Program-made: the position numbers and the translations under genes | Shown: positions 73-62,470 of the stretch, in pieces | Position numbering within the stretch: position 1 is the stretch's first letter | Layout of the letters: the number at the start of each line of letters is the position of its first letter | NCBI GenBank assembly: GCA_965221305.1 | Contig: OZ244881.1 | Location: forward strand, 854,091 to 918,090 | Direction: 5' to 3' | Length of the DNA: 64,000 nucleotides | Source: Vicinamibacterales bacterium | Lineage (GTDB): Bacteria; Acidobacteriota; Vicinamibacteria; Vicinamibacterales; UBA8438 | Notes under the pieces: model-generated | Databases searched by the model: none | Told to the model about the DNA's origin: nothing | The model's input: only the letters and a program-made list of their open reading frames with translations

Positions 73-132
73 AACCTAACGCCGGGGCGGCGAGAGGGCG
101 ACAACCTAACGCCGGGGCGGCGAGAGGGCGAC
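73..132 (-). repeat. Perfect 30-bp tandem duplication covering the last 8 codons and stop of the FGE-like gene
   Basis: AACCTAACGCCGGGGCGGCGAGAGGGCGAC occurs at 73-102 and again at 103-132. The gene-proximal copy carries the real stop (106-108, minus strand). Confidence 0.9.
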
Positions 133-1071
133 TCGGAAGCCGATGAAGGGCCGGCGGGCGCCGGGGTCGGCGCCGCCGCGGGTGGTGGTCCGTAGGTTGC
201 GGGGCGGGTCGCTGAAGGAGCCGCCGCGCATGACCCACAGGGCGTCGGCGGCTGGGTCGCCGAAGTCTCGCGCATCGAACGGATAGGGCAGCAGCGGGCT
301 CCGGGTCCACTCCCAGACGTTGCCGCTCATGTCCAGCAGTCCGTAGGGGCACTCGGGGCACGGGAGGCTGCCGACGGGGGTTGCGGTCCCGCTCCCGGGT
401 GCGGCCCGGTCGCGCCGCATCTCGTCGCCCCACGGATAGCGGCGGCCGTCCGGCCCGCGCGCCGCCTTCTCCCACTGGGCTTCCGAGGGCAGGTCGACCT
501 GCCAGCCCGCCCGAAGGCGATCGGCCACGGTCGACGGCGTCTGCGGCGAGTCGCGCAACTCGGTGTCCAGCCACCGGCAGTAGGCGAGCGCGTCGGGCCA
601 CGATACGTTGCCGACGGGATGGTCGGGGGGGGCCTGGAGAGTCTGCGGGTCGGTGGGGAACCCGGTCGCGGCGACGAAGGCCGCGAACTGGGCGACGGTG
701 ACCTCGTAGCGGCCGATGAAGTAGGCGGAGAGGTCCACCGTCCCCTGGGCGGTCGTCGCCGACCAGCGCTCGTTGTCGAACGCCTCGGGGTCGGTCGTCG
801 GAGCGGCGCCCATCGAGAACGCCCCGGCCGGGATCTCCACGAAGCCGAGCTGTGCATCGTCGGGCAGGAACCAGGCGTCGGCGCGGAATCCCGGCAGCGC
901 GGTCGGCATCGCCGGTGAGGGGGCGCCGGCCGTCGCCCCGCGACCTCCAGGAACGGGTTGTACCCCGAGCCAGACGGCCGCTCCCGCAACCAGCACGGCC
1001 AGAATCGCGGGTCCGATCACGCCGTTCGGGCCGGTGTCGGCGGGGGCGGGGAGAGAGGTGTCGGTGGGCAT
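106..1071 (-). CDS. Formylglycine-generating enzyme (SUMF1/FGE-sulfatase) domain protein, N-terminally membrane-anchored or secreted
   Basis: 321-aa ORF with FGE-type strings seen by eye (GNVWEWT, MRGGSF, YFIGRYEVTVAQF). There is a hydrophobic N-terminal segment (ILAVLVAGAAVWL). Confidence 0.85.
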   Translation of the reverse strand: MPTDTSLPAPADTGPNGVIGPAILAVLVAGAAVWLGVQPVPGGRGATAGAPSPAMPTALPGFRADAWFLPDDAQLGFVEIPAGAFSMGAAPTTDPEAFDNERWSATTAQGTVDLSAYFIGRYEVTVAQFAAFVAATGFPTDPQTLQAPPDHPVGNVSWPDALAYCRWLDTELRDSPQTPSTVADRLRAGWQVDLPSEAQWEKAARGPDGRRYPWGDEMRRDRAAPGSGTATPVGSLPCPECPYGLLDMSGNVWEWTRSPLLPYPFDARDFGDPAADALWVMRGGSFSDPPRNLRTTTRGGADPGARRPFIGFRVALSPPRR

Positions 1072-1102
1072 CGCTACAGACCTGGGGGGCGAGCCGTGTA
1101 CT

Positions 1103-3228: not shown

Positions 3229-3336
3229 TGGACCGCCCCAGAGCTTCCTTTGCCGTCCTGTCGCTGGTTTTCGCTGGCAGACGCTGCGAAAACGCCCCGC
3301 GACATGGGCAGCTTCTCTCAGGGACGGTCCACTAGT
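3224..3336. mobile_element. MITE-like intercistronic repeat element (copy A, ~113 bp) with terminal inverted repeats
   Basis: ACTAGTGGACCG (3224-3235) is the reverse complement of CGGTCCACTAGT (3325-3336). The interior matches the two copies at 54403-54620 in reverse orientation, about 85% by eye. Confidence 0.8.
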
Positions 3337-4993: not shown

Positions 4994-5002
4994 CGACGAG
5001 CC

Positions 5003-6173: not shown

Positions 6174-7907
6174 GTGAAGCCGTATTTCGAGACGATGGAC
6201 CGGTTCGGCAAGCCCCTCAAGCCGGGCAGGGCGAAGCGGGCGGCCGAGAGCGCGGAGGCGCTGCGGGCGGTGGAGGCGGACATCGCGGCGGCGGCCCGGA
6301 CGGCCGAGGAAGCCGGCTTCTCCACCGAGAAGATCAACCAGCGGGGCTGGATGACCGTGTACCAGCGGTTGGAGTACCTGTTGGACCCCGGCACGTGGCG
6401 CCCGCTTCACACCCTCTACAACCCGGCCGAGAACGACGAGGGCGTCACCAACGTCGTCGACGGCCTCGGGCGCATCGAGGGTCGATGGGCGGTGGTCATC
6501 GGGTTCGACAACAAGGTCATGGCGGGGGCGTGGCTGCCCGGCCAGTCCGAGAACATCCTGCGCGCCACCGACCTCGCGCGGCGGCTCAACGTGCCCCTCG
6601 TGTGGCTCGTCCACTGCAGTGGGGCGAAGCTGCCCGAGCAGGAGAAGTTCTACGCGAACCGGCGCGGGGCGGGGACGCCGTTCTTCCGGCACGCGGAGCT
6701 CGAGCAGGCCGGCATTCCGGTGCTGGCCGGCATCTACGGCACGAACCCCGCCGGCGGGGGGTACCAGTCGGTCAGCCCGACGATTCTGCTCGCGCACCAG
6801 GACGCCAACATGGCCGTCGGCGGGGTCGGCATCGTCTCCGGCATGGCGCCCAAGGGCGGGTTCGACACCGCCATGGTCGAGGAGATCATCGCGAGAACCC
6901 GCGAGTTCACGGCGCGCCCCCCCGGTGATGTCGCCACCCACCACGAGGCCACCGGTTTCTTCACGCGGGTCTACGACGAGGAGACCGGCGTCCTCGACGG
7001 GTTGAAGGAGTACATGCGCGCGACGCCCGCCTACGGCCCCGAGTTCTTCCGGGCGGCGGCGCCGAAAGACCCCGCGTTCCCGGTCGACGACCTCTACCAC
7101 CTGCTGCCCGTCAACCAGAAGGAGGTCTACGACTTCGACGAGGTGCTGGCCCGGCTCGTCGACGGCAGCGAGCGCCTCGAGTTCCGGCCCGACTACGGCC
7201 CCGAGGTGTTCACGGGGGTCTGCAAGGTCGACGGCCGGCTCGTCGGCTGCATCGGCAACCGGCAGGGCTATCTGGGGAAGGGCTATCCCGAGTACGGCGA
7301 CTACCCGGGCATGGGAGGCAAGCTCTACCGGCAGGGGCTCGTCAAGATGAACGAGTTCGTCACCCTCTGCGGCCGCGACCGGCTGCCCGTCGTCTGGTTC
7401 CAGGACACGTCGGGCATCGACGTCGGCGAGCGGGCCGAGCAGGCCGAGGTGCTCGGCCTCGGGCAGGCCCTGATCTACTCGATCCAGCAGACCGACGTGC
7501 CGATGATGCTAGTGGTCTTGCGGAAGGGCACGGCGGCCGCCCACTACGTCATGGGCGGCCCCACCGCCAACCGCCACAACGCGTTCACCCTCGGCACCCC
7601 CGCCACCGAGATCGAGGTGATGCACGGCGAGACCGCGGCCGTCGCCACCTACGCCCGCCGCGCCGCCAAGGAGCATGCCGCGGGGCGCTCCCTCGACCCC
7701 GTCATCGACCGCATGAACGCGCTGGTCGGCCGCTACCACGAGACCTCGCGGCCCGCCTACTGCGCCCGGCAGGGCTTCGTCGACGAGGTCGTGGCCCTCG
7801 CCGACCTGCGAGGCTACCTGCAGGCGTTCACCGGCGCCGCCTACCAGAATCCCGTCTCGATCTGCCCCCGGCACCACATGCTGCTCCCCCGCGTCATCCG
7901 GGGGTAG
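6174..7907 (+). CDS. gcdA: Glutaconyl-CoA decarboxylase alpha subunit-like carboxyltransferase
   Basis: Carboxyltransferase ORF whose strings I recall as GcdA-like (GIYGTNPAGGGYQSVSPTILLAHQDANMAVGG). I chose GTG 6174, which follows AAGAGGA. The alternative ATG 6144 would overlap the ACAD stop. Confidence 0.8.
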   Translation: MKPYFETMDRFGKPLKPGRAKRAAESAEALRAVEADIAAAARTAEEAGFSTEKINQRGWMTVYQRLEYLLDPGTWRPLHTLYNPAENDEGVTNVVDGLGRIEGRWAVVIGFDNKVMAGAWLPGQSENILRATDLARRLNVPLVWLVHCSGAKLPEQEKFYANRRGAGTPFFRHAELEQAGIPVLAGIYGTNPAGGGYQSVSPTILLAHQDANMAVGGVGIVSGMAPKGGFDTAMVEEIIARTREFTARPPGDVATHHEATGFFTRVYDEETGVLDGLKEYMRATPAYGPEFFRAAAPKDPAFPVDDLYHLLPVNQKEVYDFDEVLARLVDGSERLEFRPDYGPEVFTGVCKVDGRLVGCIGNRQGYLGKGYPEYGDYPGMGGKLYRQGLVKMNEFVTLCGRDRLPVVWFQDTSGIDVGERAEQAEVLGLGQALIYSIQQTDVPMMLVVLRKGTAAAHYVMGGPTANRHNAFTLGTPATEIEVMHGETAAVATYARRAAKEHAAGRSLDPVIDRMNALVGRYHETSRPAYCARQGFVDEVVALADLRGYLQAFTGAAYQNPVSICPRHHMLLPRVIRG

Positions 7908-8167
7908 GAGCCTGCGTGACCCCCGCTGGTCCGCCCCGCGTCGGGCCAACCCGGAATCCCGTTTCGATCTGCCCCCGGCACCACATGCTGCTCCCCCGCG
8001 TCATCCGGGGGTAGGAGCCTGCGTGACCCCCGCTGGTCCGCCCCGCGTCGGGCCAATTCGGAATCCCGTCTCGATCTGCCCCCGCCACTACATGCTGCTC
8101 CCCCGCGTCATCCGGGGGTAGGAGCCCGCGTGACCCCCGCTGGTCCGCCCCGCGTCGGGCCAATTCG
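7847..8167 (+). repeat. 107-bp tandem repeat, 3 copies, made of the last ~19 codons and stop of gcdA plus ~47 nt downstream
   Basis: GAATCCCGT starts at 7847, 7954 and 8061. I count 3-4 mismatches between copies, and each copy keeps the TAG stop in frame. Confidence 0.95.
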
Positions 8168-9711: not shown

Positions 9712-10515
9712 ATGAAGTGGCTATCGACCGTCGTCGTCGTGCTGGCCCTCGTGGCGCCGGCCCAAGCCCAGCTCGCCGTGCCCAACGAGGCCGGGATCAC
9801 CTACGGGCACGTTCACCTGAACGTCAGCGACATCGAGGTCCACAAGAAGCTGTGGGTCGAATGGTTCGGCGGCGAGGTCGTCGAAAGGGGGCCGTTGACC
9901 ACCATCCGCCTGCCCAACTTCCTGATCGCGTTGACGGAGCGGGAGCCGACGGGCCCCATGCAAGGCTCGGTGCTCGATCACTTCGGGTTCAAGGTGCGCA
10001 ACACCACCGAGTTCGTGCAGCGGTGGCGCGAGGCGGGCATGGAGGTCGGGCCGGAGTTCATCGGCTCGGAGGGGATGCCCAACGCCTACGTCATGGCTCC
10101 GGACGGCGTCTGGGTCGAACTGCAGGAGGACCCGTCACTGCACGTCCCCATCGCCGGTTACCACATTCACTTCTTCACGCCGCAGTACGAAGAGCTGCTG
10201 GACTGGTACACGGAGGTCTTCGGCCTCCGCATCCGTCCGCGCGGTCGTATCGAGACGACGACCGACGTGCCCGGCATGAACATGAGCTTCGGGGCGGGCA
10301 GCGTCGACGAACCGGCCGGGACACGCGGGCGCGCCCTCGACCACATCGGCTTCGAGGTGGACGACCTGGAGGCGTTCTGCGAGCGGCTCGAGGCGATGGG
10401 TATCGAGTTCGATGTCGAGTATCGCGAGATCGACAGCGTCCAACTGAAGGTCGCCTTCCTCACCGATCCCGCGGGCACTTACATCGAGCTGACGGAAGGC
10501 TACGACGCGTACTAG
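9712..10515 (+). CDS. Secreted two-domain VOC (glyoxalase/bleomycin-resistance/dioxygenase) family protein
   Basis: ORF trimmed to ATG 9712, which follows GAGGAGGA. It has the signal peptide MKWLSTVVVVLALVAPAQA and two VOC-like halves (HVHLNV... and LDHIGFEV...). Confidence 0.75.
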   Translation: MKWLSTVVVVLALVAPAQAQLAVPNEAGITYGHVHLNVSDIEVHKKLWVEWFGGEVVERGPLTTIRLPNFLIALTEREPTGPMQGSVLDHFGFKVRNTTEFVQRWREAGMEVGPEFIGSEGMPNAYVMAPDGVWVELQEDPSLHVPIAGYHIHFFTPQYEELLDWYTEVFGLRIRPRGRIETTTDVPGMNMSFGAGSVDEPAGTRGRALDHIGFEVDDLEAFCERLEAMGIEFDVEYREIDSVQLKVAFLTDPAGTYIELTEGYDAY

Positions 10516-10746
10516 CCCGCGCTCTCATCACCCGTGGTCGCCACTCTCCCGGTTGGGCCACGGGTGACGGGTCGCAGCGCGCGCTTCGATTCTGTGTGAA
10601 GTCCGCCCCGCGGGCACTTACATCGAGCTGACGGAAGGCTACGACGCGTATTAGCCCGCGCTCTCATCACCCGTGGTCGCCACTCTCCCGGTTGGGCCAC
10701 GGGTGACGGGTCGCAGCGCGCGCTTCGATTCTGTGTGAAGTCCGCC
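10468..10746 (+). repeat. 139-bp tandem duplication (2 copies) of the last ~15 codons and stop of the VOC gene plus its downstream hairpin
   Basis: GCGGGCACTT occurs at 10471 and 10610. I count a single difference between copies (TAC to TAT), which is synonymous. Confidence 0.95.
10528..10567 (+). terminator. Stem-loop downstream of the VOC gene, duplicated at 10667-10706
   Basis: TCACCCGTGG (10528-10537) pairs with CCACGGGTGA (10558-10567). There is no U-tract, so intrinsic-terminator function is uncertain. Confidence 0.4.
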
Positions 10747-14769: not shown

Positions 14770-14892
14770 GAGCCTGGGCCGCGGAACGGCGCAGGCTCCT
14801 GCTCGCGTCCCAACCGTAACGAGCCTCACGGATGCCCCGCGTCGGCGCTCGGCGTGGGCGGCGGCCATGGCGGCGCCGCGCTCCTCGATGAA

Positions 14893-15058
14893 CCGCCGCC
14901 GGTCGTCGGTCAACCGCCGCCGGTCGTCGGTCAACCGCCGCCGGTCGTCGGTCAACCGCCGCCGGTCGTCGGTCAACCGCCGCCGGTCGTCGGTCAACTG
15001 CCGCCGGCGCCGGTCAATTGCCGTCGGCGTCGGTCAACCGCCGCCGGTCGTCGGTCAA
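14893..15058. repeat. Tandem 21-bp direct repeat array (5 perfect, 2 degenerate and 1 further perfect unit), iteron- or centromere-like
   Basis: The unit is CCGCCGCCGGTCGTCGGTCAA. Units start at 14893, 14914, 14935, 14956, 14977, 14998 (degenerate), 15019 (19 bp) and 15038. Confidence 0.9.
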
Positions 15059-15240
15059 CCGTCGCCGCACCTCCTCGAACAACGCCGGCAGGGTGGCCTG
15101 CGCATCGGCCGCCACCCGTGCGTCGGCGGCCCCCGACGCGCTCGAACGCGGCCGGATCGAGCCGTGCTCGTGGTTGAAGCCGTCGCGTAGCGGGCCAGGG
15201 CGCAGCAGCCCGGGGGTAGTGCGGGAAACGCGGTTTACCC

Positions 15241-16781: not shown

Positions 16782-17113
16782 CCCGCGACCGCCGTCCCGC
16801 CATCGCGTTCATTCCCCGCTCACCGCACCTCGGCATCGACGCCCTCCTCCCTCCGAGCGGGCGATGATGGCGGCGCCGGACGAGTCGCTGACCCGCGACC
16901 GCCGTCCCGCCATCGCGTTCATTCCCCGCTCAGCGCACCTCGGCATCGACGCCCTCCTCCCTCCGAGCGGGCGATGATGGCGGCGCCGGACGAGTCGCTG
17001 ACCCGCGACCGCCGTCCCGCCATCGCGTTCATTCCCCGCTCAGCGCACCTCGGCATCGACGCCCTCCTCTCCCTCCGAGCGGGCGATGATGGCGGCGCCG
17101 CACGAGTCGCTGA
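16782..17113 (-). repeat. ~110-bp tandem repeat, 3 copies, made of the last ~24 codons and stop of the GltP-like gene plus ~38 nt downstream
   Basis: CCCGCGACC occurs at 16782, 16892 and 17002. The gene-proximal copy differs from the distal copies by a 2-nt indel and one substitution. Confidence 0.95.
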
Positions 17114-18305
17114 AGATGTTGATGGCGGTGCGGTACATGTCGAGGGGACGGTCGATGGCGAGCATGGCGAGCACGATGGCCTCGGCCTGCGGATGGCCGC
17201 CCAGCCCGATGGCGTCGAGGACGATGAAGATGACCACCAGTCCCGCCGACGGTACCGCGGCCGCGCCGATCGACGCGAGCAGCGCCGTCATCACCGCCAC
17301 CACCTGGGCGCCGAGCGACAGGTCGAAGCCGATCACCTGGGCGATGAAGAGCGCTCCCACGCACTCGAACACCGCGGTGCCGTCCATGTTCACGGTGGCC
17401 CCCATGGGGAGGACGAACGAGGACACCTTGTTCGAGACCCCCACCCGCTCCTGAACCGTCCGCATCGTCACCGGAAGCGTCGCGGCCGACGAGCTCGTCG
17501 AGAACGCGATGAGCAGCGGGTTGCGCATGTTCTTGAAGTGGATGGCGGGGGAGATGCGCGCCAGCACGATCAGAACCAGCGGGAGGGTGACGAAGAGATG
17601 GACGGTGAGCCCCGTCCCCACCGTCAGGAAGTAGCGGATCAGCGGCGCGAACGCCTCGAACCCGGTGGTGCCGACCATCCGCGTGATGAGCGCGAACACC
17701 CCGATGGGCAGCAGCTTGATGATGCCGGAGGTCAGCGCCACCATCACCTGGAAGAACGCGTTGAAGAAGCGGGAGAGGGTGTCGCGGTGACCGTCCGTCT
17801 TCAGGGTCGCGATCGCGGCCCCGAGGAGGATGCTGAAGAAGATGATGGGCAGCATGTCGCCCGCGGCGGCCGACGACAGGACATTCGGCGGCACGATGTC
17901 GAGGAGCAGGTCGACCCCGGAGGTGGGGATGTCGAGCTCGGGCATTTCGCCGCCGGCAGTGGCGTCGCCGAGGGAGGCGCCGACCCCGGGCCGGAACAGG
18001 TTGACGACGATGAGGCCGGTGGACGCGGCGAGGAAGCTCGTCAGCAGGTAGTAGCCCATCGTCTTGCCGAAGAGCCGCCCGATGGCCCGTCCGCCCCCGA
18101 TCGAGGCGACTCCGGAGACGATGGAGGCGATGACCAGCGGTACGATGATCATGCGCAGCAGGCGCATGAACAGGTCGCCGATCCAGCCGACCGCGTTCGC
18201 CGCGCCCTCGCCGAAGATCAGGCCGGTGAGGGCGCCGAGGAGCATGGCGCCGAGGACCTGCCAGTGGAGCTTGAGGTACCAGAGCCGGTCTTGGTTGATG
18301 TCCAT
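17040..18305 (-). CDS. Dicarboxylate/amino acid:cation symporter (DAACS, GltP/DctA family)
   Basis: 421-aa polytopic ORF with typical DAACS strings (SSSAATLP, MDGTA). Confidence 0.85.
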   Translation of the reverse strand: MDINQDRLWYLKLHWQVLGAMLLGALTGLIFGEGAANAVGWIGDLFMRLLRMIIVPLVIASIVSGVASIGGGRAIGRLFGKTMGYYLLTSFLAASTGLIVVNLFRPGVGASLGDATAGGEMPELDIPTSGVDLLLDIVPPNVLSSAAAGDMLPIIFFSILLGAAIATLKTDGHRDTLSRFFNAFFQVMVALTSGIIKLLPIGVFALITRMVGTTGFEAFAPLIRYFLTVGTGLTVHLFVTLPLVLIVLARISPAIHFKNMRNPLLIAFSTSSSAATLPVTMRTVQERVGVSNKVSSFVLPMGATVNMDGTAVFECVGALFIAQVIGFDLSLGAQVVAVMTALLASIGAAAVPSAGLVVIFIVLDAIGLGGHPQAEAIVLAMLAIDRPLDMYRTAINIFSDSCGAAIIARSEGEEGVDAEVR

Positions 18306-24042: not shown

Positions 24043-24064
24043 CTCTCATCGTAACGCAGGACCG

Positions 24065-24255
24065 CCGTCGCGTGGTGCGACGCGTCGGGGCGCCCGGCGG
24101 GGCGGCCGGAGGTTGCTCGGGCGCGAGCTCCGGCTCGTGCGCGCCGTCGCGTGGTGCGACGCGTCGGGGCGCCCGGCGGGGCGGCCGGAGGTTGCTGGGG
24201 CGCGCGCTCCGGCTCATGCGCGCCGTCGCGTGGTGCGACGCGTCGGGGCGTCCGG
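24065..24255. repeat. 79-bp tandem repeat (~2.4 copies) in a divergent intergenic region
   Basis: CCGTCGCGTGGTGCGACGCGTCGGGGCG starts at 24065, 24144 and 24223. Confidence 0.85.
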
Positions 24256-24358
24256 CGCCCCGGTCCCCCGGGCGGTGGGGTTCGCGGCGCGGCGCGGACG
24301 CGGTCGTGGGCGGAGCCCGCGGCGCCGGAACGGCGGCCGGGAGGGCCTGGAGGCTCGG

Positions 24359-26580: not shown

Positions 26581-26601
26581 CGACGTGACGACGTGACGAC
26601 G
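26565..26601 (+). repeat. 8-bp microsatellite (CGACGTGA, ~4.6 units) spanning the TauE stop codon
   Basis: Units start at 26565, 26573, 26581 and 26589, with a partial unit at 26597. The stop is the TGA at 26578-26580. Confidence 0.9.
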
Positions 26602-35405: not shown

Positions 35406-35527
35406 TGCGCGCGCGGTCTCGTTCGCGGCGTGGCGCCCTGACGGCACATCGCGACCGACGAGTTCGAGCTGTAGCACGGCCGTGCGGTCGTACAATGCCG
35501 GGTGAGTCCATCCACGGTTCCGCTGCC

Positions 35528-36073: not shown

Positions 36074-36200
36074 GCGCAGAGGGCGGCCGGCCGGCTTCGT
36101 CGCGACGGGACGTGCAGGATGGGTTGCGTCCGAAGTGCGCGCGGCGCCCGCCGCAGCGGGCGACCTGCCCGGACGGTATTCGGGCGGGTGACGATCGACG

Positions 36201-39417: not shown

Positions 39418-39574
39418 GGCGCGCGCGCCCGATGCGCTTGCCCCGCGGATCCCGCGCCCGCCGGGGCGCCTTCGAACCGCCGCGGTCGAGCCGGAGGCGC
39501 CCGCGCCCGATGCGCTTGTCCCGCGGATCCCGCGCGCGCCGGGGCCCCTTCGAACCGCCGCGGTCGAACCGACC
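39418..39574. repeat. 78-bp tandem duplication between the methyltransferase and helicase genes
   Basis: CCCGATGCGCTTG occurs at 39428 and 39506. The copies are about 90% identical by eye. Confidence 0.85.
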
Positions 39575-40972: not shown

Positions 40973-41040
40973 TCGGGCGCGGGTGCGGGCGCGCGGCGCC
41001 CTTGCCCCGAACGCGGAGGGCGTCGGCGCCGAGAACGAAC

Positions 41041-42267
41041 ATGCTGACGACTGACCTCGTGCGCGTGCGGCGGCGCGGCGGTCGCATCGAGGCCCGCCGG
41101 CTGGGCCGCGCCGAGCGCGGGCGCCTGTTGGAAGCGGCCGACGGTTACGTCGCGGCCGCGCAGGCCGGGGTCGGCCGGCCCCGTGCGGCGTTCGAGGCGG
41201 CGTGCGACGACGTGCCGTGCGAGCCCACCGACTACAAGCTGCTCCGGGGCCTTCGGAAGCTCGTGCGGGACCGCTGCGTCTTCGAGACGCCGGCGGACGT
41301 GGACGCGCCGGCCTTGCGGCGCGCCGTCTTCGCCCGCGCCGCCGCGGCTCGGCGCGCCCTGAACGACGACGACGCGTTCGAGCGCGACGCCGTCATCGCG
41401 CCGGCCGCCGCCGAGTGCGGCCTGACGGCGCGCGACGTGCCCGACGCGCTCTTCGCTGACCTGAAGGAGCACCAGGTCCTGGCACGGTTCGACGCCGTCG
41501 GGGGGCCGGCCCTCGTCGCCGCCTACGAGACCGCGCAGCACCAGGCGATACTCCTGCGGGCGGTTCGCGTCGTCGTCACGTTCGACCGGCCCGACCCCGG
41601 CGGGTTCCGGCTCTTCTTCCGCCGGCTGAAGTTCCATCGGCTGCTCTACGTCGCGACCCGGCCGTCCGCGGGGGTGTGCCGCGTCGAGATCGACGGGCCG
41701 TTCAGCCTGTTCCGGTCCGTCACCGCCTACGGCCTGCAGCTCGCGCTCCTGCTGCCGGCCCTCGATGCCTGCGGCTGCCGCTGGGAGCTCGACGCCGACG
41801 TCCTGTGGGGCCCCGAGCGGCAGGCGCTCGAGTTCCATCTCGAAGGCGAGCCGGCGACCGGGGTCGCCGACGAGGAAGCGCGCCTGCCCGACGAGGTCGC
41901 CCGGTTGCGCGACCGGTTCCGGCGGATGAAGACGCGGTGGACGGTCGCGGTGGCGCACGAGCTGCTCGACGTGCCCGGCTTCGGTCTGTGCGTCCCCGAC
42001 CTCGTCTTCACCCACGCCGGCACCGGCCGCCGGGTCTACTTCGAGGCGCTGGGCTACTGGAGCCGCGAGGCCGTGTGGCGCCGGGTGGATCTGGTCGAGG
42101 CGGGGCTCCCTCATCCGGTCATCTTCGCCGTCAGCCGCCGGCTGCGGGTCAGCGAGGAGGTCCTCGACGAGCAGCTTCCCGGCCAGCTCTACGTCTACGC
42201 GGGCGCCATCAGCGCCCGCGCCGTCGAAGAGCGCCTCGAGGCCGGCCTGGCCGCGCCGCGCAGTTGA
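41041..42267 (+). CDS. DUF790 (Bax1-like) endonuclease
   Basis: Trimmed to ATG 41041, beginning MLTTDLVRVRRRGGRIEARRL. The C-terminal nuclease-like block CVPDLVF...RRVYFEALGYWS matches the DUF790 layout as I recall it. Confidence 0.75.
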   Translation: MLTTDLVRVRRRGGRIEARRLGRAERGRLLEAADGYVAAAQAGVGRPRAAFEAACDDVPCEPTDYKLLRGLRKLVRDRCVFETPADVDAPALRRAVFARAAAARRALNDDDAFERDAVIAPAAAECGLTARDVPDALFADLKEHQVLARFDAVGGPALVAAYETAQHQAILLRAVRVVVTFDRPDPGGFRLFFRRLKFHRLLYVATRPSAGVCRVEIDGPFSLFRSVTAYGLQLALLLPALDACGCRWELDADVLWGPERQALEFHLEGEPATGVADEEARLPDEVARLRDRFRRMKTRWTVAVAHELLDVPGFGLCVPDLVFTHAGTGRRVYFEALGYWSREAVWRRVDLVEAGLPHPVIFAVSRRLRVSEEVLDEQLPGQLYVYAGAISARAVEERLEAGLAAPRS

Positions 42268-54406: not shown

Positions 54407-54514
54407 TTGACCGTCCGTGAGACGGAGCTGCCCATGTCGCGGGGCGTCTTCGCAGCGTTTGCCGGCGAACGCCAGCGACAGGACGGCAAGGGAAGCTCGG
54501 GGACAGTCCGCTGG
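54403..54514. mobile_element. MITE-like repeat element, copy B
   Basis: It begins with CTAG, overlapping the ankyrin gene's TAG stop. It is about 85% identical by eye to the reverse complement of copy A (3224-3336). Confidence 0.8.
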
Positions 54515-54620
54515 TTGACCGTCCTTGAAGAAGTGGCCCACGTCGCGGGGCGTTTTGGCAGCGTTTGCCAGCGCAGAACCAGCGACAGGACCGCAATGGA
54601 AGCTGCGGGACGTCCGCTAG
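54515..54620. mobile_element. MITE-like repeat element, copy C, head-to-tail with copy B
   Basis: It has the same core (GCCCACGTCGCGGGGCGTTTTGGCAGCGTTTGCCAGCG...) and ends ...GGGACGTCCGCTAG at 54620. Confidence 0.75.
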
Positions 54621-54639: not shown

Positions 54640-57120
54640 ATGATGCGCGAGGGTCGGTCCGCGGCGAACGCGCTGGGCGCGGCGGTGCTGGCGTGTGGGG
54701 GCATCCTCGCCGTCGCGGCGTCGGCGGCCGGACAGCCGGCGAGCGCTGTCGCACCGCCTGCGCAGGCGGTCGGGGCGCGGGGGGGCGCGCCCGCGCAGGC
54801 CGCGGTTGCGACGGCGTCACCGACGGGAGGCGAGGCTGCCGCCTACCGGGCGATCCTCGACCGCTACTGCGTGGCCTGCCACAACCGGCGCACGCTGGCC
54901 GGGAGCCTCGCCCTCGACGACCTCGATCTGGAGCAGGTCGGCCCGCAGGCGGAGCTGTGGGAGAAGGTTCTCGAGAAGGTGCGCACGCGGTCGATGCCGC
55001 CTCCGCGCCGCCCGCGGCCCGATCCGGCCGTCTACGACGCGTTCGGCGGGTGGCTGGAGCGGGCGCTCGACCAGTGGGCGGCCGACCATCCGAATCCGGG
55101 GCGTCCCGCCATCCACCGCCTCAATCGGCTCGAGTACGCCAACGCGGTGCGCGACCTGCTGCACCTAGAGGTCGACGCGCAGGCCCTGCTGCCGGCCGAC
55201 GACATGGCGTTCGGCTTCGACAACAACGCCGCCATCCTCACCATCGCGCCCGGGTCGTTCTCGCGATACATGTCCGCGGCGCGCACCGTGAGCCGGCTCG
55301 CCGTCGGGGACGCCTCGATCGAGGCCGACGTCGTGCGCTATCCGGTGTCGCCGCTGCTGGCGCAGGACGGCCGCATGGGCGACGACCTGCCGTTCGGCTC
55401 GCGCGGCGGCGCCGCGGTTCGGCACCACTTTCCGCGCGACGGCGACTACGTGCTGCGCATTGCGCTGCGGCGGAACGGAGGCCGCAACGAGCCCCAGGAG
55501 ATCGACGTTCGGGTGGACGGCGAGCGCGTCGCCCTGCTGCGCGCCGGCCGCTGGCCGGACGACGCGCCGTCGGGGTCGCCCGGCGCGCGCGCGGCGGACG
55601 AGGGTCTCGCCGTGCGCTTTCCGGCGCGCGCGGGGACACGGCCGGTGTCGGTCTCGTTCACGGGGCGCCGGATGACTCCGGAGGGGGTGGCGCCGGCCCG
55701 CCTGCCGCTGTGGACCTTCTCGACCGGCCGCGGCTACGTCGAGCCGATGGCCCTCGACAGCTTCGAGATCGAGGGTCCGTACGACGGCCCGGAGGCCGCC
55801 GGCGCGCGCGCGTCCGACACCCCCAGCCGCCGGCGCATCTTCGTCTGCGAGCCGGCGTCGGCGGCCGACGAGGAGGCGTGCGCAGCGCAGATCGTCGGGA
55901 CGCTGGCGCGGCGGGCGTTCCGTCGTTCGGTGACCGAGGACGATTTGCAGGATCTGCTCGCCTTCTACCGCGAGGGGCGGGCGGAGGGCGACTTCCGGGC
56001 CGGCATCCGGCGCGCCCTCGAGAGCATCCTCGTCGACCCCGAGTTCCTCTTCCGCATCGAGCGCGACCCGCCGGGCGCCGCCCCCGCGACCGCGTACCGT
56101 CTGAGCGACGTCGAGCTCGCGGCGCGCATCTCGTTCTTCCTCTCGGCGAGCATCCCGGACGACGAGCTCCTCGAGGCGGCGGTGGCGGGCCGGCTGCGCG
56201 ACCCCGACGTGCTCGAGGCGCAGGTGCGACGCATGCTCGCCGACGAGCGCGCCGGGACCCTGGTGACGAGCTTCGCCGCGCAGTGGCTGCACCTGCGGCG
56301 CATGCGCACCGTCACCCCCGACGTGAACGCCTTCCCCGCCTTCGACGAGAACCTGCGGGACGCCCTCATCCGCGAGACCGAGCTGTTCGTCGGCAGCCAG
56401 TTGCGGGACGACCGCAGCGTGGTCGAGCTGCTGACCGCCGACTACACGTTCGTCAACGAGCGGTTGGCCCGCCACTACGGCATCCCCGGCGTTTACGGCC
56501 CCCGCTTCCGGCGCGTCGAGTGGGACGACGACCGGCGCCGCGGGCTGCTGGGGCAGGGCAGCATCCTCACCGTGACCTCGCTCGCCACCCGCACCTCGCC
56601 GGTGGTGCGGGGCAAGTGGATTCTCGAGAACGTGCTCGGCACCCCCCCGCCGCCCCCGCCCCCCGACGTGCCGGAGCTGCCCGAGCGCGAGGAGAGCGGC
56701 GAGCCCGCCTCGCTGCGGGCGCGGCTCGAGGCGCACCGCGCCAACCCCGTCTGCTCGGGCTGCCACTCGCGCATGGACCCGTTGGGCTTCGCCCTCGAGA
56801 ACTTCGACGCGGTGGGCCAGTGGCGCGACGCCGACGCGGGCGGGGCCCCCATCGACACCGCCGGGGTGCTGCCCGACGGCGCCGCCTTCGACGGGCTGCC
56901 GGCGCTGCGCGACATCCTGCACGGCCGCCGCGACGAGTTCGTCGCCACCGTCACCGAGAAGCTCCTGACCTATGCCCTCGGGCGCGGCGTCGAGCACTAC
57001 GACCGCCCGGCCATCCGCGCCATCGTGCGCGAGGCGGCCGCCGACGACTACCGCTGGTCGTCGATAATCCTCGGCATCACCCGCAGTCTCCCGTTCCAGA
57101 TGAGGAGATCGGAATCATGA
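54640..57120 (+). CDS. DUF1592/DUF1595/DUF1587/DUF1588/DUF1585 family protein with an N-terminal heme-binding CxxCH
   Basis: Trimmed to ATG 54640, which follows GGAGGAGA. It has the strings YCVACHN, CSGCHSRMDPLGFALENFD and RTRSMPP. Confidence 0.85.
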   Translation: MMREGRSAANALGAAVLACGGILAVAASAAGQPASAVAPPAQAVGARGGAPAQAAVATASPTGGEAAAYRAILDRYCVACHNRRTLAGSLALDDLDLEQVGPQAELWEKVLEKVRTRSMPPPRRPRPDPAVYDAFGGWLERALDQWAADHPNPGRPAIHRLNRLEYANAVRDLLHLEVDAQALLPADDMAFGFDNNAAILTIAPGSFSRYMSAARTVSRLAVGDASIEADVVRYPVSPLLAQDGRMGDDLPFGSRGGAAVRHHFPRDGDYVLRIALRRNGGRNEPQEIDVRVDGERVALLRAGRWPDDAPSGSPGARAADEGLAVRFPARAGTRPVSVSFTGRRMTPEGVAPARLPLWTFSTGRGYVEPMALDSFEIEGPYDGPEAAGARASDTPSRRRIFVCEPASAADEEACAAQIVGTLARRAFRRSVTEDDLQDLLAFYREGRAEGDFRAGIRRALESILVDPEFLFRIERDPPGAAPATAYRLSDVELAARISFFLSASIPDDELLEAAVAGRLRDPDVLEAQVRRMLADERAGTLVTSFAAQWLHLRRMRTVTPDVNAFPAFDENLRDALIRETELFVGSQLRDDRSVVELLTADYTFVNERLARHYGIPGVYGPRFRRVEWDDDRRRGLLGQGSILTVTSLATRTSPVVRGKWILENVLGTPPPPPPPDVPELPEREESGEPASLRARLEAHRANPVCSGCHSRMDPLGFALENFDAVGQWRDADAGGAPIDTAGVLPDGAAFDGLPALRDILHGRRDEFVATVTEKLLTYALGRGVEHYDRPAIRAIVREAAADDYRWSSIILGITRSLPFQMRRSES

Positions 57121-58475
57121 TCATCACCCGACAGGCGCTTCCCCGACGCACCGTGCTCCGCGGCCTCGGGACCGCGGTGGCCCTGCCGCTTCTCGACGGG
57201 ATGGTTCCGGCCCTGACCGCGCTCGAGCGGACGGCGGCCAGGGCGAAGCCGCGGCTGGGGGTGGTCTACGTCCCGCACGGGGCGGTCATGAACAACTGGA
57301 CCCCCGCCGCCGAGGGCCGCGGGTTCGGCTTCTCTCCGATTCTGCAACCCTTGGAACCGTTTCGCGACCGCCTGCAGGTGCTGACCGGGCTCGACCACGC
57401 CCCCGCCGCCCAGATGCCGGGCGACCCCGCGGGCGGCCACGGACGCATCACCGGCGCGTTCCTCACCGGCGTGCACGCCAAGCCGACGGAGGGGGCGGAC
57501 TTCCGGGCCGGCACCTCGGTGGACCAGATCGCGGCGAGGGTGCTCGGCCGGGAGACCCAGCTCGCGTCGCTGGAGGTGGGCATCGGCCTGCCCGAGTTCG
57601 GCGGGGCCTGCGACGCCGGCTTCAGTTGCGCCTACATCAGCACGCTGTGCTGGAGCACGCCCACGACCCCGCTGCCGATGGAGAGCAACCCGCGGGCGCT
57701 CTTCGAGCGGCTGTTCGGCGACGGCGCCACCACCGACCCCGCGGCGCGTCGAGCGCGGCGGCGCGAAGACAGGAGCATCCTCGACGCCGTGACCCGCAAG
57801 GTGGCGCGGCTGCGCAAGGGGCTCGGTGCGGCCGACCAGGCCAAGCTGACCGACTATCTCGCGGCGGTGCGGGACGTCGAGCGGCGCATCCAGCGGGCCG
57901 AGGCCCAGTCTGACCAGGAGCTGCCCGTCGTCGAGCGGCCGTCGGCGAGCGCGCCGGCCTCGTTCAGCGAGTACGTCAAGGTGATGTTCGACCTGCAGGT
58001 GCTCGCCTACCAGACCGACATGACCCGAGTCGTCAGCTTCCTGATGACGCCCGAGCTGACCGCCCAGACCTATCCCGAGATCGGCGTGCCCGACCCGCAC
58101 CACGCGCTGTCGCACCACGAGAACAAGCCCGAGAGCCTCGCCAAGCTCATCAAGGTCGGCGCCCATCACACCGGGCTCTTCGCCTGGTATCTCGACCGGC
58201 TGCGGGAGACGCCGGACGGCGACGGGTCGCTGCTCGACCAGGTGATGGTGCTCTACGGCAGCGGCATGAGCAACAGCAACCTGCACAACATCCAGAACCT
58301 GCCGATCCTGCTCGCGGGCGGCGGAGCGGGACATCTGCGGGGCGGCCGACACATCCGCTTCGCCGAAGGGACGCCGCTGACCAACCTCTACCTGTCGCTG
58401 CTCGGCAAGCTGGACGTGCCGGCGGAGCAGGTGGGCGACAGCACCGGCCGGCTGAGCGAGTTGAGCGACGTGTGA
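57117..58475 (+). CDS. DUF1552 family protein
   Basis: An ATGA overlap links it to the upstream gene. It has a Tat-like N-terminus (ITRQALPRRTVLRGLG) and the typical DUF1592/DUF1552 pairing. Confidence 0.85.
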   Translation: MIITRQALPRRTVLRGLGTAVALPLLDGMVPALTALERTAARAKPRLGVVYVPHGAVMNNWTPAAEGRGFGFSPILQPLEPFRDRLQVLTGLDHAPAAQMPGDPAGGHGRITGAFLTGVHAKPTEGADFRAGTSVDQIAARVLGRETQLASLEVGIGLPEFGGACDAGFSCAYISTLCWSTPTTPLPMESNPRALFERLFGDGATTDPAARRARRREDRSILDAVTRKVARLRKGLGAADQAKLTDYLAAVRDVERRIQRAEAQSDQELPVVERPSASAPASFSEYVKVMFDLQVLAYQTDMTRVVSFLMTPELTAQTYPEIGVPDPHHALSHHENKPESLAKLIKVGAHHTGLFAWYLDRLRETPDGDGSLLDQVMVLYGSGMSNSNLHNIQNLPILLAGGGAGHLRGGRHIRFAEGTPLTNLYLSLLGKLDVPAEQVGDSTGRLSELSDV

Positions 58476-58579
58476 TCGGCCGCCGCGGGCGGCCTCCCGC
58501 CGGCCGTCCGCACCGGCCGGCTGAGCGAGTTGAGCGACGTGCGATTGGCCGCCGCGGGCGGCCTCCCGCCGGCCGTGTG
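58442..58579 (+). repeat. 69-bp tandem duplication of the last 11 codons and stop of the DUF1552 gene plus a GC hairpin
   Basis: CACCGGCCGGCTGAGCGAGTTGAGCGACGTG occurs at 58442 and 58511. The second copy has TGA changed to CGA. Each copy contains the palindrome GGCCGCCGCGGGCGGCC. Confidence 0.95.
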
Positions 58580-58848
58580 CGACGGGCCCCTTCGGTCGAC
58601 CGGGCGAGCGCGAGCGCCGGGCCGAAGCCCGTGGGCCGGGCCGAAGCCCGTGGTACGACGGTGGGTTGCCCATCACTCGCGCGCGTCTCTTTATTCCCAC
58701 CCGGCCGGGTAGAGCTCGGGGAGCGTCGCCGCGCCCGAGGCCGGCTCGCCGGCGCCATCCCGCCGTTTCCGGCGCGCGTCCCTGCTATCATGCCGCCGCG
58801 GCGTCGTCTTCCAAGCCGCCGCCCGTCGGCAACCGGACCTCGACCACG

Positions 58849-61800
58849 ATGAGGATGAGCGTGTCTGAATCTCGAAGGCTCGCGGCGTGCGTCGCCGCGC
58901 TTACCCTCGGTCTCGCCGCCTGCGGGGGCGCGCCCACCGGCGTCTCGTCGCAGATATCACCCGAGTACCGCGAGACGGTGCGCGCGTTCTACCGGGGTTT
59001 GGCCTCCCTGGAGGTCGGACTGCTCGACGACGCGCAGACCGCGTTCGAGCGGGCGGCGGCGCTCGCCCCCGACGAGCCCGCGATCCGAGCCAACCTGGCC
59101 GTCGTGCACGTCGGGTTCGGCAACGAGACGGAGGCGGCGGGGCACATCGAGGCGGCCCGCGGTCTCGCTCCCGACAGCGCCGACGTGCGCTTCCTCGAGG
59201 CCCAGCTCGCGGGGTTCCAGGGCCGTTTCGAGGACGCCGTCGCGGGGTACCGCCAGGTGATCGATCTCGACCCCGACCATCTGCGGGCTCGCTACGCCCT
59301 CGCCCAGGAGCTCGACCGGGCCGGCGGCGACGCCGAGGCGGCCGAGGCCCAGGCTCAGCTCGAGGCGATTCGCGACCGCCGACCCGGCAACCTCGCGGTT
59401 CTCGTGCAGCATGCACGGGTGGCCGCCCGCCGCCAGGACGCGCCGGCCCTCGCCGACACCGTCGATCGCCTGCAAGGGATGACCGACGGCTGGCCGGATC
59501 TGGCCGTCAGCCAGCTCGAAGGGCTGTCGGCGGCGGTCGCCGAGGCGGACCTGGAAGGGGCCCAGAGGCCGGCCCAGCTCCTGCGCAACGTCCTCGTGCG
59601 GCTGCCCGCGTTCCGGGAGGACCAAGCCCGGGTCAGCGTCAGCGCCGAGGCCATCGCCGAGCCGTTGATGCGCTTTCTCGTGCTGCCTTCTCCCCCGGCC
59701 ACCGCCTCGCCCCGCGACGAGAGCCTCGCCTATGACGCCGAGCCGCTCGATCCCGACGTAGCCGACGACCAAGTCGTGGTGGCGGTGGTGCCCGGCGGGG
59801 AGGAGCCCCCGATGGTCGTCGCCGCGAACGGGCGGGAGGCGCGCCGCCTCGGCGCTCCGGGCGACGCCGCCGGTCTCCCGTTTCCGGCCGGGACGGGCCC
59901 GGCGGGGCCGGCGCCGCCGTCCTCCGACGGCGTGCTCGTCCTCGACTGGACCGGCGACTACCGGATGGACCTGGTGCTGGCCGGGCCCGGAGGGATCCGA
60001 CTGTGGTTGGGGGATGAGTTCGGCGATGGTTTCGTGCCGGAGGCCGGTTTCACGGAGGTCGTCGGCATCCCGGGGGACGATCCCGCGGTTCGCGGCGCCT
60101 ACGGGGTCTGGGCCGCCGACACCGAGATGGACGGCGACCTCGACATCGTCTTCGGGGCGATCACCGGGGCGCCGTCGGTCCTCCGCAACAACGCCGACGG
60201 GACGTGGCGCCGGGAGAGCCCGTTTCCCGGCGTGGTCGCCCTCCGAGACTTCGGTTGGGGCGATTTCGACGGCGACGGCGACCCCGACGCCGTGCTGCTC
60301 GACGGAGACGGCGTGCTGCACCTCTTCGAGAACCGTCAGGCGGGCCGGTTCGACCCGGCCGCGCCCCTCGAGCTGCCGGCGGCGGCGGTCGCCCTCGCGG
60401 TCGGCGACCTCGACGCCGGCGGCCGGCTCGACCTCGCGCTGCTGGACGCCGACGGTCGGTTGTGGCGGGGAAGCAGGGACGGGGCCGCGTGGGAGACGGC
60501 CGAGGCCGGGTTCTGGGACGCCTTCCCCGCCGGGGCCGCCCCCGGCTCCCACCGGCTGCTTCTGGCCGACCTCGACAACAACGGGGCGCTGGACGTGCTC
60601 GCGTCGGGCCCGTCAGGCACCCGGATGTGGCTGGCCGACGAGGGGTCCCGTCTCGAGCCGCACGACGCGGGCGTCGATGCCGAGGTGTTCGCCGCCCACG
60701 ACCTGACCGGCGACGGCCTGCTCGACCTCGTCGGCATCGACGACGGCACGCCGGTCCGGCTGACCGCGCGGGCCGACGCCGGCTACGGCTGGCAGCAGAT
60801 CCGGCCCCGCGCCAACACCGCGGCCGGCGACCAGCGCATCAACGCGTTCGGGGTGGGCGGCGAGATCGAGGTGCGGGCCGGCCTGCTCGTCCAGAAGCAG
60901 GTGCTGACCGGCGCGCCCGCCCACTTCGGGCTCGGGGTGCAGACCCAGGCCGACGTCACCCGCATCAGCTGGCCGAACGGCGTGACCCAGGCCGACTTCG
61001 AGTTCGCGGCCGACCAGGTCATCGTGGCCGAGCAGCGGCTCAAGGGGTCGTGCCCGTGGCTCTTCGCCCACGACGGGAGCCGGGTGCGGTTCGTCACCGA
61101 CTTCATTTGGCGCTCGCCCCTCGGGCTGCGCATCAACGCCCAGGACACCGCCGACATCGCCTTCACCGAGGACCGCGTGCTCGTTCGGGGCGATCAGCTC
61201 GCCGCGGTGGACGGCGAGTACGACCTGCGCATCACCGCCGACCTGTGGGAAACGCACTTCTTCGACCACGTGTCGCTGCTGGTGGTCGACCACCCGCCCG
61301 ACACCGAGGTATGGGTGGACGAACGTTTCGCCCGCGACCCGGTGCCCCTCGACACCGTCGTCACCGGCCCCGCCCGCACCGTCACCCGCGCCTGGGACGA
61401 CGCCGGGACCGATGTGAGCGAGCTCGTCGCGAAGCGGGACAACCGCTACGTGGCGTCGTTCGACGAGGGCACCCACCAGGGCGTCGCCGAGCCGCACTAC
61501 CTCGAGCTGGAGCTCGACGAGGCGACGGAGACGTGGGACGCGGTGACCCTGCTCGCCTACGGCTGGGTCTATCCCACCGACAGCAGCATCAACGTGGCTC
61601 TCGGTCAGGGCGCCCATCCCATTCCCCGCGGGGTGGCGATGGAGGGGCAGGACGCGAAGGGGAGCTGGGTCGTGCTGCACGCGGATCTCGGCTTCCCGGC
61701 CGGCAAGCTCAAGACCATGGTCGTCGACGTGCCGCGTCTCCCGGACGGCACGCGGCCGCGGCGACTGCGCCTGCGGACCAACCTAGAGATCTACTGGGAC

Positions 61801-62376
61801 TGGATCGGTCAGGCCCCGCGGCTCGATCCCGGTCTGGCGCGGGAGACGCGGCTCGACCCCGCCGTGGCCGACCTCGGCTACCGCGGCTACTCGCGGACGG
61901 CGCTGCTCGGGCCGCGCGGACTCGAGTTGCCGGACTACGAGATCGGCAACCACCGTCCCCGGTGGCGCGATCTCGTCGGCTTCCACACCCGCTTCGGCGA
62001 CGTGCGCGAGCTGCTCGCCGGCGTCGACGACCGTTACGTCATCATGAACGCCGGCGACGAGATGAAGCTCCGCTTCGAAGCCCCGCCCCCGCCCGAGGCG
62101 GGGTGGCGGCGCGACTTCGTGCTCATCGGCGACGGCTGGGTCAAGGACGGCGACTTCAACACCACCCACGCGAAGACGGTGGGGCCGCTGCCGTCGCACG
62201 ACCAGCCGGTCTACGACCCGGCGGCGTCGGCCGTGCTCGAAGACGACCCCGTGTACCGGCGACACGAGGACGACTGGCTGAACTGGCACACCCGTTACGT
62301 CGCCCCGGACCACTTCCTGCGCGGCCTTCGGCGGGTCGAGCGGGAACCTCAGCCGGCGGGGGAGCCGAGCCCGTGA
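58849..62376 (+). CDS. Large lipoprotein with N-terminal TPR repeats, FG-GAP/VCBS repeats and an ASPIC/UnbV-like region
   Basis: Trimmed to ATG 58849. It has the lipobox LGLAAC, TPR-like helices, repeated DxDGDGxxD motifs and INAFGVGGEIEV. Confidence 0.8.
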   Translation: MRMSVSESRRLAACVAALTLGLAACGGAPTGVSSQISPEYRETVRAFYRGLASLEVGLLDDAQTAFERAAALAPDEPAIRANLAVVHVGFGNETEAAGHIEAARGLAPDSADVRFLEAQLAGFQGRFEDAVAGYRQVIDLDPDHLRARYALAQELDRAGGDAEAAEAQAQLEAIRDRRPGNLAVLVQHARVAARRQDAPALADTVDRLQGMTDGWPDLAVSQLEGLSAAVAEADLEGAQRPAQLLRNVLVRLPAFREDQARVSVSAEAIAEPLMRFLVLPSPPATASPRDESLAYDAEPLDPDVADDQVVVAVVPGGEEPPMVVAANGREARRLGAPGDAAGLPFPAGTGPAGPAPPSSDGVLVLDWTGDYRMDLVLAGPGGIRLWLGDEFGDGFVPEAGFTEVVGIPGDDPAVRGAYGVWAADTEMDGDLDIVFGAITGAPSVLRNNADGTWRRESPFPGVVALRDFGWGDFDGDGDPDAVLLDGDGVLHLFENRQAGRFDPAAPLELPAAAVALAVGDLDAGGRLDLALLDADGRLWRGSRDGAAWETAEAGFWDAFPAGAAPGSHRLLLADLDNNGALDVLASGPSGTRMWLADEGSRLEPHDAGVDAEVFAAHDLTGDGLLDLVGIDDGTPVRLTARADAGYGWQQIRPRANTAAGDQRINAFGVGGEIEVRAGLLVQKQVLTGAPAHFGLGVQTQADVTRISWPNGVTQADFEFAADQVIVAEQRLKGSCPWLFAHDGSRVRFVTDFIWRSPLGLRINAQDTADIAFTEDRVLVRGDQLAAVDGEYDLRITADLWETHFFDHVSLLVVDHPPDTEVWVDERFARDPVPLDTVVTGPARTVTRAWDDAGTDVSELVAKRDNRYVASFDEGTHQGVAEPHYLELELDEATETWDAVTLLAYGWVYPTDSSINVALGQGAHPIPRGVAMEGQDAKGSWVVLHADLGFPAGKLKTMVVDVPRLPDGTRPRRLRLRTNLEIYWDWIGQAPRLDPGLARETRLDPAVADLGYRGYSRTALLGPRGLELPDYEIGNHRPRWRDLVGFHTRFGDVRELLAGVDDRYVIMNAGDEMKLRFEAPPPPEAGWRRDFVLIGDGWVKDGDFNTTHAKTVGPLPSHDQPVYDPAASAVLEDDPVYRRHEDDWLNWHTRYVAPDHFLRGLRRVEREPQPAGEPSP

Positions 62377-62470
62377 GCTTCCCGTTACGTCGTCCCGGAC
62401 CACTTCCTGCGCGGCCTTCGGCGGGTCGAGCGGGAGCCTCAGCCGGCGGGGCGCCGAGCCCGTGACCTTC
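62291..62470 (+). repeat. 90-bp tandem duplication of the last 28 codons and stop of the TPR/FG-GAP gene
   Basis: CCCGTTACGTCG occurs at 62291 and 62381. I count about 6 differences. TGA is retained in both copies. Confidence 0.95.

Follow-up and report, generated by a model that had tools for sequence, protein, structure and literature searches.

Why should one bacterial gene after another carry a second copy of its own 3′ end, stop codon included, immediately downstream? The question was raised by a 64-kb stretch of DNA from an uncultured Vicinamibacterales bacterium (GenBank assembly GCA_965221305.1, contig OZ244881.1, positions 854,091 to 918,090). This whole stretch is referred to below as the window, and positions are numbered from its first base. 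A preliminary description of the window had listed nine tandem duplications of gene ends. The account favored here, with moderate confidence, is that the lineage has undergone a burst of duplication that needs no sequence homology and has been filtered by selection, and that the link with stop codons is mostly a product of that filter.

Tandem duplication of gene ends

The window is 72% GC and 87–93% coding, with short spacers. A gene map was obtained with a codon-usage model trained on long open reading frames (ORFs), which returned 45 genes whose starts are approximate. Repeats were called with Tandem Repeats Finder, and the copies were then compared directly side by side. All nine listed loci (9/9) were reproduced as tandem duplications, in place and in unit size as the preliminary description had given them, and the reported identity of 94–100% between copies was borne out by the direct comparison. 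Each of the nine units started within the coding 3′ end of an intact gene or a gene remnant, included the stop codon and ended in the spacer. The pattern was indeed present on both strands, two of the nine loci (those at 73 and 16782) belonging to minus-strand genes.

The minus-strand FGE-sulfatase-domain gene (106–1071) ended in two 100% identical copies of a 30-bp unit (73–132), composed of 24 nt of coding tail, the TAG stop (106–108) and 3 nt. On the plus strand, the gcdA-like carboxyltransferase gene (6174–7907) ended in three copies of a 107-bp unit (7847–8167; 58 nt of tail, TAG at 7905–7907 and 46 nt), with 3–5 differences between copies. The plus-strand glyoxalase/VOC gene (9712–10515) ended in two copies of a 139-bp unit that differed at a single position (10468–10745; 45 nt of tail, TAG at 10513–10515 and 91 nt). 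Three copies of a 110/112-bp unit (16782–17113; 71 nt of tail, TGA at 17040–17042 and 38 nt) followed the minus-strand sodium:dicarboxylate symporter gene (17040–18305).

The other five loci were all on the plus strand. The DUF1501 gene (31637–33145) carried a 16-bp unit twice, with one difference (33134–33165; 9 nt of tail, TGA at 33143–33145 and 4 nt). A 14-bp unit was present twice (33765–33792; 7 nt, TAA at 33772–33774 and 4 nt) at the end of ORF 33490–33774, a remnant of decayed restriction-system genes. Two copies of a 69-bp unit with four differences terminated the DUF1552 gene (57117–58475; repeat at 58441–58578, with 32 nt of tail, TGA at 58473–58475 and 34 nt), and the stop was gone from the second copy (TGA to CGA). 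The TPR/FG-GAP gene (58978–62376) was followed by a 90-bp unit in two copies of 94% identity (62291–62469; 83 nt of tail, TGA at 62374–62376 and 4 nt). The last of the nine was of a separate class, expanded by slippage: an 8-bp ACGACGTG microsatellite of 4.8 copies (26564–26601) lying across the TGA stop of the TauE gene (25837–26580). The microsatellite also holds an overlapping GTGA stop/start motif shared by TauE and the next ORF (start 26593), so that a change in copy number could shift the start of the downstream gene.

The gene names were backed by Pfam matches (FGE-sulfatase, carboxyltransferase, glyoxalase/VOC, sodium:dicarboxylate symporter, TauE, DUF1501, DUF1552 and TPR/FG-GAP). At the affected genes the domain models extended to the C-termini of the proteins, and the gene-proximal copy thus leaves each protein intact.

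Two tail duplications, both on the plus strand, were absent from the earlier list. A 78-bp unit in two copies of 93% identity (39416–39571) begins at the second base of the TGA stop (39415–39417) of ORF 38368–39417, a methylase fragment. The other is an old duplication of about 105 bp in two copies of about 77% identity (31466–31570 and 31571–31672) at the tail of the PSCyt/PSD1 gene (28057–31569), which was detected by a sensitive comparison of the last 120 nt of each gene with the 400 nt downstream. Its second copy (31571–31672) now constitutes the spacer and the ribosome-binding and start region of the DUF1501 gene, and resembles copy 2 of an array of a 120-bp unit at the orthologous site of the related locus L087. 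L087 shares the old PSD1 tail duplication and has re-duplicated it (120 bp in 2.5 copies, with a nested 19-bp unit in two copies across the stop).

Unit boundaries and differences between copies

Beyond whole units, the repeats extended by 0–2 bp in the window and by 0–3 bp in relatives, which is about the chance level at 72% GC. The junctions are effectively blunt. Flanking direct repeats of about 4 bp or more, as left by slippage, were not found at the window loci. Only at 26564–26601 did a short unit recur in several copies with a number that varied between relatives. The preliminary argument against random slippage therefore stood for the loci with 0–2 bp of junction microhomology and failed for the 8-bp microsatellite. 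What was found elsewhere, namely junctions without homology and head-to-tail copies of unique local sequence, is the pattern expected of end joining or fill-in.

The units were locus-specific: an all-against-all BLAST comparison gave no similarity between loci, in agreement with the earlier statement that they do not form a dispersed family. No motif was shared at the unit boundaries. Between 0 and 83 nt of a unit were coding, and the fractional position of the stop codon within the unit was spread roughly uniformly from 0 to 0.92; neither the stop nor a hairpin thus serves as an anchor for the breakpoints. A consensus scan, whose yield was not above shuffled expectation, found no canonical intrinsic terminators at the loci, and folding of each unit gave no common structure.

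Comparison of gene-proximal with downstream copies yielded 29 substitutions, of which 11 were C to T and 2 were G to A (G/C to A/T, 13/29). Adenine was involved in only 5 of the 29. Differences were scattered over the coding-derived and spacer-derived parts alike, and the pattern looks like neutral decay of unconstrained, dead copies. Most unit lengths were not multiples of three.

Ancestral state in related genomes

In a scan with one genome per species, the window grouped with uncultured Vicinamibacterales (Acidobacteriota), a clade in which many genomes have been assembled as multi-megabase contigs. The relatives used here (designated by L numbers) are sampled loci or contigs, L088 being an independent metagenome contig. 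The nearest proteins were 96% identical to those of the window. Nucleotide identity over alignable DNA was only 86–92%, and the relatives are accordingly regarded as different species.

Comparison of orthologous loci, which the preliminary description had proposed, gave a clear result: at 8 of the 9 loci, relatives had a single copy or, for the 8-bp repeat, fewer units. The FGE tail was present once in L001 and L002. The 107-bp unit was single in every relative, and in L005 and L006 both flanks aligned around the single copy. All relatives had one copy of the 139-bp VOC unit, and L088 (92.5% nucleotide identity) had one copy of the symporter tail. L087 carried 2–3 imperfect units at the site of the TauE repeat and a single copy of the 16-bp DUF1501 unit; the 69-bp DUF1552 and 90-bp TPR/FG-GAP units were single in L083 and L084. 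For the 14-bp duplication (33765–33792), no alignable ortholog of the exact tail was found among the relatives. The single copies at orthologous sites identify the duplications as recent insertions in the lineage of the window. Consistent with this, the copies differ by 0–6% and the species by 8–14% in alignable DNA, which places the events after the species split.

Relatives carried events of their own. L004 had a 96-bp unit in two copies at a gene end, L020 a 122-bp unit in 1.9 copies beginning at a stop, and L087 the 120-bp array of 2.5 copies at the PSD1 tail. L014 had a 24-bp unit in two copies at one stop and, at the end of the same FGE gene that has the 30-bp duplication in the window, an independent 122-bp unit in two copies. 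Events at 5′ ends also exist, since L015 had two start-codon-spanning duplications: in one (2487–2727) the ATG of the downstream copy is replaced by CGG in the decoy copy upstream, and the head of a carboxyltransferase gene was also duplicated in this locus. Identical arrays were present in three contigs (L084–L086) from two samples, and such arrays are thus reproducible across assemblies.

A unit of 122 bp recurred in four unrelated duplications in four genomes (L014, 3814–4059; L015, 2487–2727; L020, 20113–20341; L083, 7274–7522), and a fifth unit was 120 bp long (L087, 9616–9918). The five units of about 120 bp were compared for hidden similarity and none was detected; their recurrent length could be coincidence or a preferred length. 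Three units of 106–110 bp were present in the window, one of them being the mobile element at 54392 described below. A separate 83-bp unit, tandem in L009 (6710–6898) and scattered as single copies in L004, L011, L015, L020, L085 and L086, is a second small dispersed repeat family of the clade.

Density of duplications

A repeat was counted as long when its unit measured at least 45 bp, with a minimum of 85% matches and 1.9 copies. The window had 7 such repeats in 64 kb, compared with 9 in 603 kb of 31 non-redundant clade loci and 3 in 922 kb of 52 loci from other taxa fetched with the same query. A further 79 metagenome loci from other taxa had 0 in 795 kb, a weaker control since short-read assemblies may collapse repeats; the other taxa pooled gave 3 in 1.7 Mb. 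When gene tails were compared with the sequence downstream of them, similarity above background was obtained for 6 of 39 window genes and for 4 of about 330 genes of relatives. The phenomenon thus occurs throughout the clade, but its density in this species, or at any rate in the window, is roughly tenfold higher.

Stop codons: targeting or survivorship

The preliminary description had judged the pattern to exceed what random events would give. Against uniform placement this holds: 0.6 of 12 units would be expected to contain a stop codon, and the probability of 10 or more is 7.5e-13. Uniform placement, though, ignores selection. A survivorship null was therefore constructed by collapsing the window to its pre-duplication state, enumerating all placements for each unit length and removing those that lay wholly in a gene. 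Gene starts were set to either of two extremes, and runs were made both with and without start-spanning events. Under these conditions 2.8–4.7 of the 12 events were expected to span a stop, and for long units in short spacers the expected stop overlap was 30–70%. In the relatives, four long repeats were at stops, two at starts and three were intergenic; among short repeats, one was at a stop and 14 were intergenic. These proportions, with 5 of 24 non-internal repeats at stops, were consistent with the survivorship null.

On the favored account, duplications of 14–139 bp would arise in this lineage by a process that requires no sequence homology. Such a process could be the filling-in of a staggered break whose ends are then joined bluntly, or minimal-homology template switching at a stalled replication fork. 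Either the rate would be unusually high in this genome or the products would be retained unusually well, with a lower level across the genus-level clade. A duplication inside a gene would break the gene and be removed by selection, and one that includes a start codon would leave an upstream decoy start and be selected against. A duplication that includes a stop would leave the first copy of the reading frame untouched, would add only a dead tail, and so would survive. Since the genome is largely coding and its spacers are short, a surviving duplication of about 100 bp would usually overlap the 3′ end of a gene. Two arrays may later have grown to three copies by unequal exchange, and old copies would decay or be recycled as spacer, as at 31571–31672. 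The comparisons above establish that the duplications exist, that they are derived, that their junctions are blunt and that their density is raised; from these we infer both the repair mechanism and the role of selection, rather than targeting, in setting the positions.

Several observations weigh against this account. By a strict count, 8 of the 12 units span a stop, a modest excess over the survivorship nulls (P 0.0008–0.03). What is unexpected lies mainly in the units of 14, 16 and 30 bp, since three of the five short non-genic units thus span a stop and the chance for each was only 6–22%. Of 39 window genes, 6 had tail copies and 0 had head copies; the corresponding counts among 371 genes were 10 and 2. 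The survivorship nulls also assume approximate gene starts and duplication-tolerant spacers. All counts for this species rest on 64 kb of its genome, so that the density is a value for the window only. Finally, no Ku, LigD or other end-joining gene was present among the 45 window genes. As to the residual P of 1e-2 to 1e-3, it is weak evidence for targeting, because the window had been flagged for this very pattern.

Alternative explanations

The residual excess of stop-spanning units and the preponderance of tail over head copies are what would be expected if gene ends were a mutational hot spot, an alternative that we regard as unlikely but as the strongest of those considered. Here breaks or fork stalling would occur where translation and transcription end, and error-prone repair would produce the duplications. 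Possible sources are R-loops on untranslated RNA past the stop, stalled RNA polymerase meeting a fork, and gyrase acting on downstream positive supercoils. A hot spot would also fit the independent hits on the same gene ends (FGE in the window and L014, the PSD1 tail in the window and L087, and the DUF1552–TPR spacer in the window and L084), and the 122-bp unit of four unrelated events, with one more of 120 bp, hints at a physical ruler. Nevertheless, the breakpoints are unanchored to the stop codon or any hairpin, canonical terminators are absent at the loci, and the relatives show proportions explained by survivorship alone. These points, with the 2.8–4.7 events expected under the survivorship null and the lack of a boundary motif, also left without support the earlier claim that a systematic process at gene ends or terminators was required. 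Moreover, affected genes are divided between the two orientations as genes are overall, and the 3′ over 5′ bias is equally explained by selection against decoy starts and displaced promoters.

Somewhat more doubtful is an undescribed process tied to the end of translation or transcription, in which breaks at 3′ ends would be repaired by blunt duplication, possibly with a preferred length of about 107–122 bp set by a protein–DNA complex. The species would then be a natural hyper-duplicator.

The preliminary description had also raised selection for back-up stops or terminators. More broadly, copies might be kept as tandem terminators, structures in the 3′ untranslated region (UTR), back-up stops or regulatory RNAs. 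Some are old enough to have diverged by 6% or even 23%, and the old PSD1 tail copy does supply the spacer and start region of the next gene. We nonetheless consider a selected function improbable, and the claim was not sustained. Most unit lengths are not multiples of three, which puts the downstream stops out of frame; the stop has been lost from the downstream copy at 58441; and the differences, mainly C-to-T changes in the downstream copies, lean from G/C to A/T and are spread over coding- and spacer-derived parts. No Rfam family was matched anywhere in the window, and relatives do well with single copies.

Slightly less probable again is an artefact of assembly or consensus, in which uncollapsed overlaps between co-existing strains would give false copies that differ by the divergence of the strains. 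The assembly is metagenomic, and the density of the window is far above that of related assemblies. However, units of 14–30 bp and three-copy arrays with private substitutions do not fit unmerged overlaps. The same type of event was seen in several independent assemblies, among them the identical arrays of L084–L086, whose three contigs derive from two samples; in assemblies that share the naming scheme but come from other taxa, such repeats are rare; and the old, 77%-identical copy is common to the window and a related species.

Footprints of genetic elements are scarcely credible at the nine loci, even though a small element does insert in the window at CTAG sites containing TAG stops and one affected gene has the FGE-sulfatase/C-type-lectin fold, a frequent target of diversity-generating retroelements. 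Transposon target-site duplications and miniature inverted-repeat transposable elements (MITEs) were rejected because the units are unique, vary in length (14–139 bp) and lack terminal inverted repeats and common motifs. Attachment-site repeats would be separated by an integrated element, but the copies abut directly with nothing between them. Template and variable repeats of a diversity-generating retroelement, considered on account of the FGE-fold gene, were rejected on differences that are not confined to adenine (5/29). Domains of an integrase, a transposase or a reverse transcriptase were likewise absent from the 45 called genes.

A separate element at CTAG sites

The earlier suggestion of elements that target gene ends thus failed for the gene-tail duplications and held for one separate element only. 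A 106-bp repeat from 54392 consists of two tandem copies of a 103-bp MITE-like element on the plus strand (54407–54510 and 54515–54618), after the ankyrin gene. A third copy lies on the minus strand at 3229–3331, after a 48-amino-acid (aa) ORF ahead of the OAD-beta gene, and is 87% identical (90/104 positions). The element has terminal inverted repeats (TGGACCGYCCC...) and CTAG flanks, and was absent from both orthologous sites in relatives. Given the third copy elsewhere, the terminal inverted repeats and the CTAG flanks, the repeat at 54392 was dropped as a candidate gene-tail duplication; terminal inverted repeats, a flanking duplication of fixed length and dispersed copies were found together in this element only.

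The TAG stop codons of the ankyrin gene and of the 48-aa ORF, which lie upstream of the element at its two sites, each fall within the flanking CTAG. The element thus lands on stop codons by virtue of its target sequence, and is the sole case in the window of an element that truly does so. CTAG is about ten times rarer in the window than expected from base composition (16 sites compared with 163). One of these rare sites starts at 10746, the base right after the second 139-bp copy of the VOC duplication, whose unit has its own CTAG at the stop of the gene; this may be coincidence.

Other repeats and features of the window

Three further tandem repeats spanned no stop codon. A 79-bp unit in 2.5 copies (24063–24257) is intergenic, between divergent genes. 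A perfect 19-bp unit in two copies (58616–58653) lies in the spacer 40 bp downstream of the 69-bp DUF1552 array. A 21-bp unit in 8.5 copies (14891–15067), 122 bp downstream of a pyrroloquinoline quinone (PQQ)-dehydrogenase gene, has the multi-copy form of a variable-number tandem repeat (VNTR) rather than that of a two-copy duplication, and the ORF overlapping it had no Pfam match.

ORFs 33490–33774 and 38368–39417, at whose ends the 14-bp and 78-bp duplications lie, belong to a decayed restriction-modification island (33200–39500); in L087 the Res gene and a 949-aa methylase gene are intact. The C-terminal part of Res is broken up over three reading frames (33237–33561). What had been described as a Res fragment, the ORF 33490–33774, is a chimera of remains from two decayed genes. 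A fragment of the methylase N-terminus is found at 35528–35803 and a methylase-domain fragment in ORF 38368–39417; PIN-domain genes (34083–34526 and 34995–35405) lie among the remnants. Downstream, at 39602–42267, an XPB-type helicase gene with a damage-recognition domain is followed by a DUF790 gene, a pair that resembles the archaeal XPB-Bax1 helicase-nuclease module.

An 89-nt tRNA-Cys called by ARAGORN at 7382–7470 lies inside the carboxyltransferase coding sequence and is most probably a spurious call. GC skew provided no orientation signal by which affected genes could be told from unaffected ones. The closest metagenome contig has an LXNJ01 accession, a prefix that we take to be that of a sponge metagenome. 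Ankyrin-repeat proteins, one of which is encoded in the window, are common in sponge symbionts.

Implications and comparison with known systems

Should the density of the window, about one event per 6–9 kb, hold genome-wide, this species would carry several hundred events and would offer a natural system for the study of homology-independent duplication in bacteria, of the lifetime of the copies and of their recycling. Gene callers can be misled by dead gene tails past stop codons, as can analyses of terminators and 3′ UTRs, and enrichment at stop codons alone does not demonstrate targeting.

Literature searches gave no direct precedent for stop-codon-spanning tandem duplications in bacteria, the nearest being a remark in a preprint on Borg elements, and no description of homology-free small tandem duplications as a pervasive feature of bacterial genomes; a paper on end joining in Pseudomonas did not mention duplications. 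Among known classes, slipped-strand microsatellites account for the 8-bp array at 26564–26601, which has many short units and fewer, imperfect ones in a relative. Elsewhere the units are long, number two or three per locus and lack direct repeats at their flanks. Mycobacterial interspersed repetitive units (MIRUs) are intergenic units of 40–100 bp that may extend over the stop and start codons of adjacent genes. The likeness to these and other VNTRs lies in intergenic tandem units of similar size that touch gene ends and vary in copy number between relatives. MIRUs, however, form a dispersed family of related units, whereas the units of the window are copies of the local gene tail and mostly present twice.

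In Borg extrachromosomal elements, about half of the tandem repeat regions either lie between genes or begin with a unit located in the end of a gene (bioRxiv 10.1101/2022.05.18.492195). Like those of the window, they are pervasive, recently formed, specific to one genome and missing from relatives. Borg repeats are perfect, A-rich and built of three or more short units, with partial repeats flanking them (bioRxiv 10.1101/2022.05.18.492195); in contrast, the window repeats are GC-rich, mostly two-copy, 94–100% identical and up to 139 bp in unit length, and no partial repeats flank them.

The closest counterpart in form is eukaryotic. Small tandem duplications that lack homology at the junction have been studied extensively there as a mutational signature. 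They are described as arising by fill-in of staggered or overhanging breaks with end joining, for example through Pol alpha-primase at break termini (PMC8355091). The present case differs in concerning a bacterium, and the window genes include no Ku or LigD. In form, the duplications of the window are nevertheless like the eukaryotic ones: tens to about 100 bp or more in length, arranged head to tail and specific to their locus.

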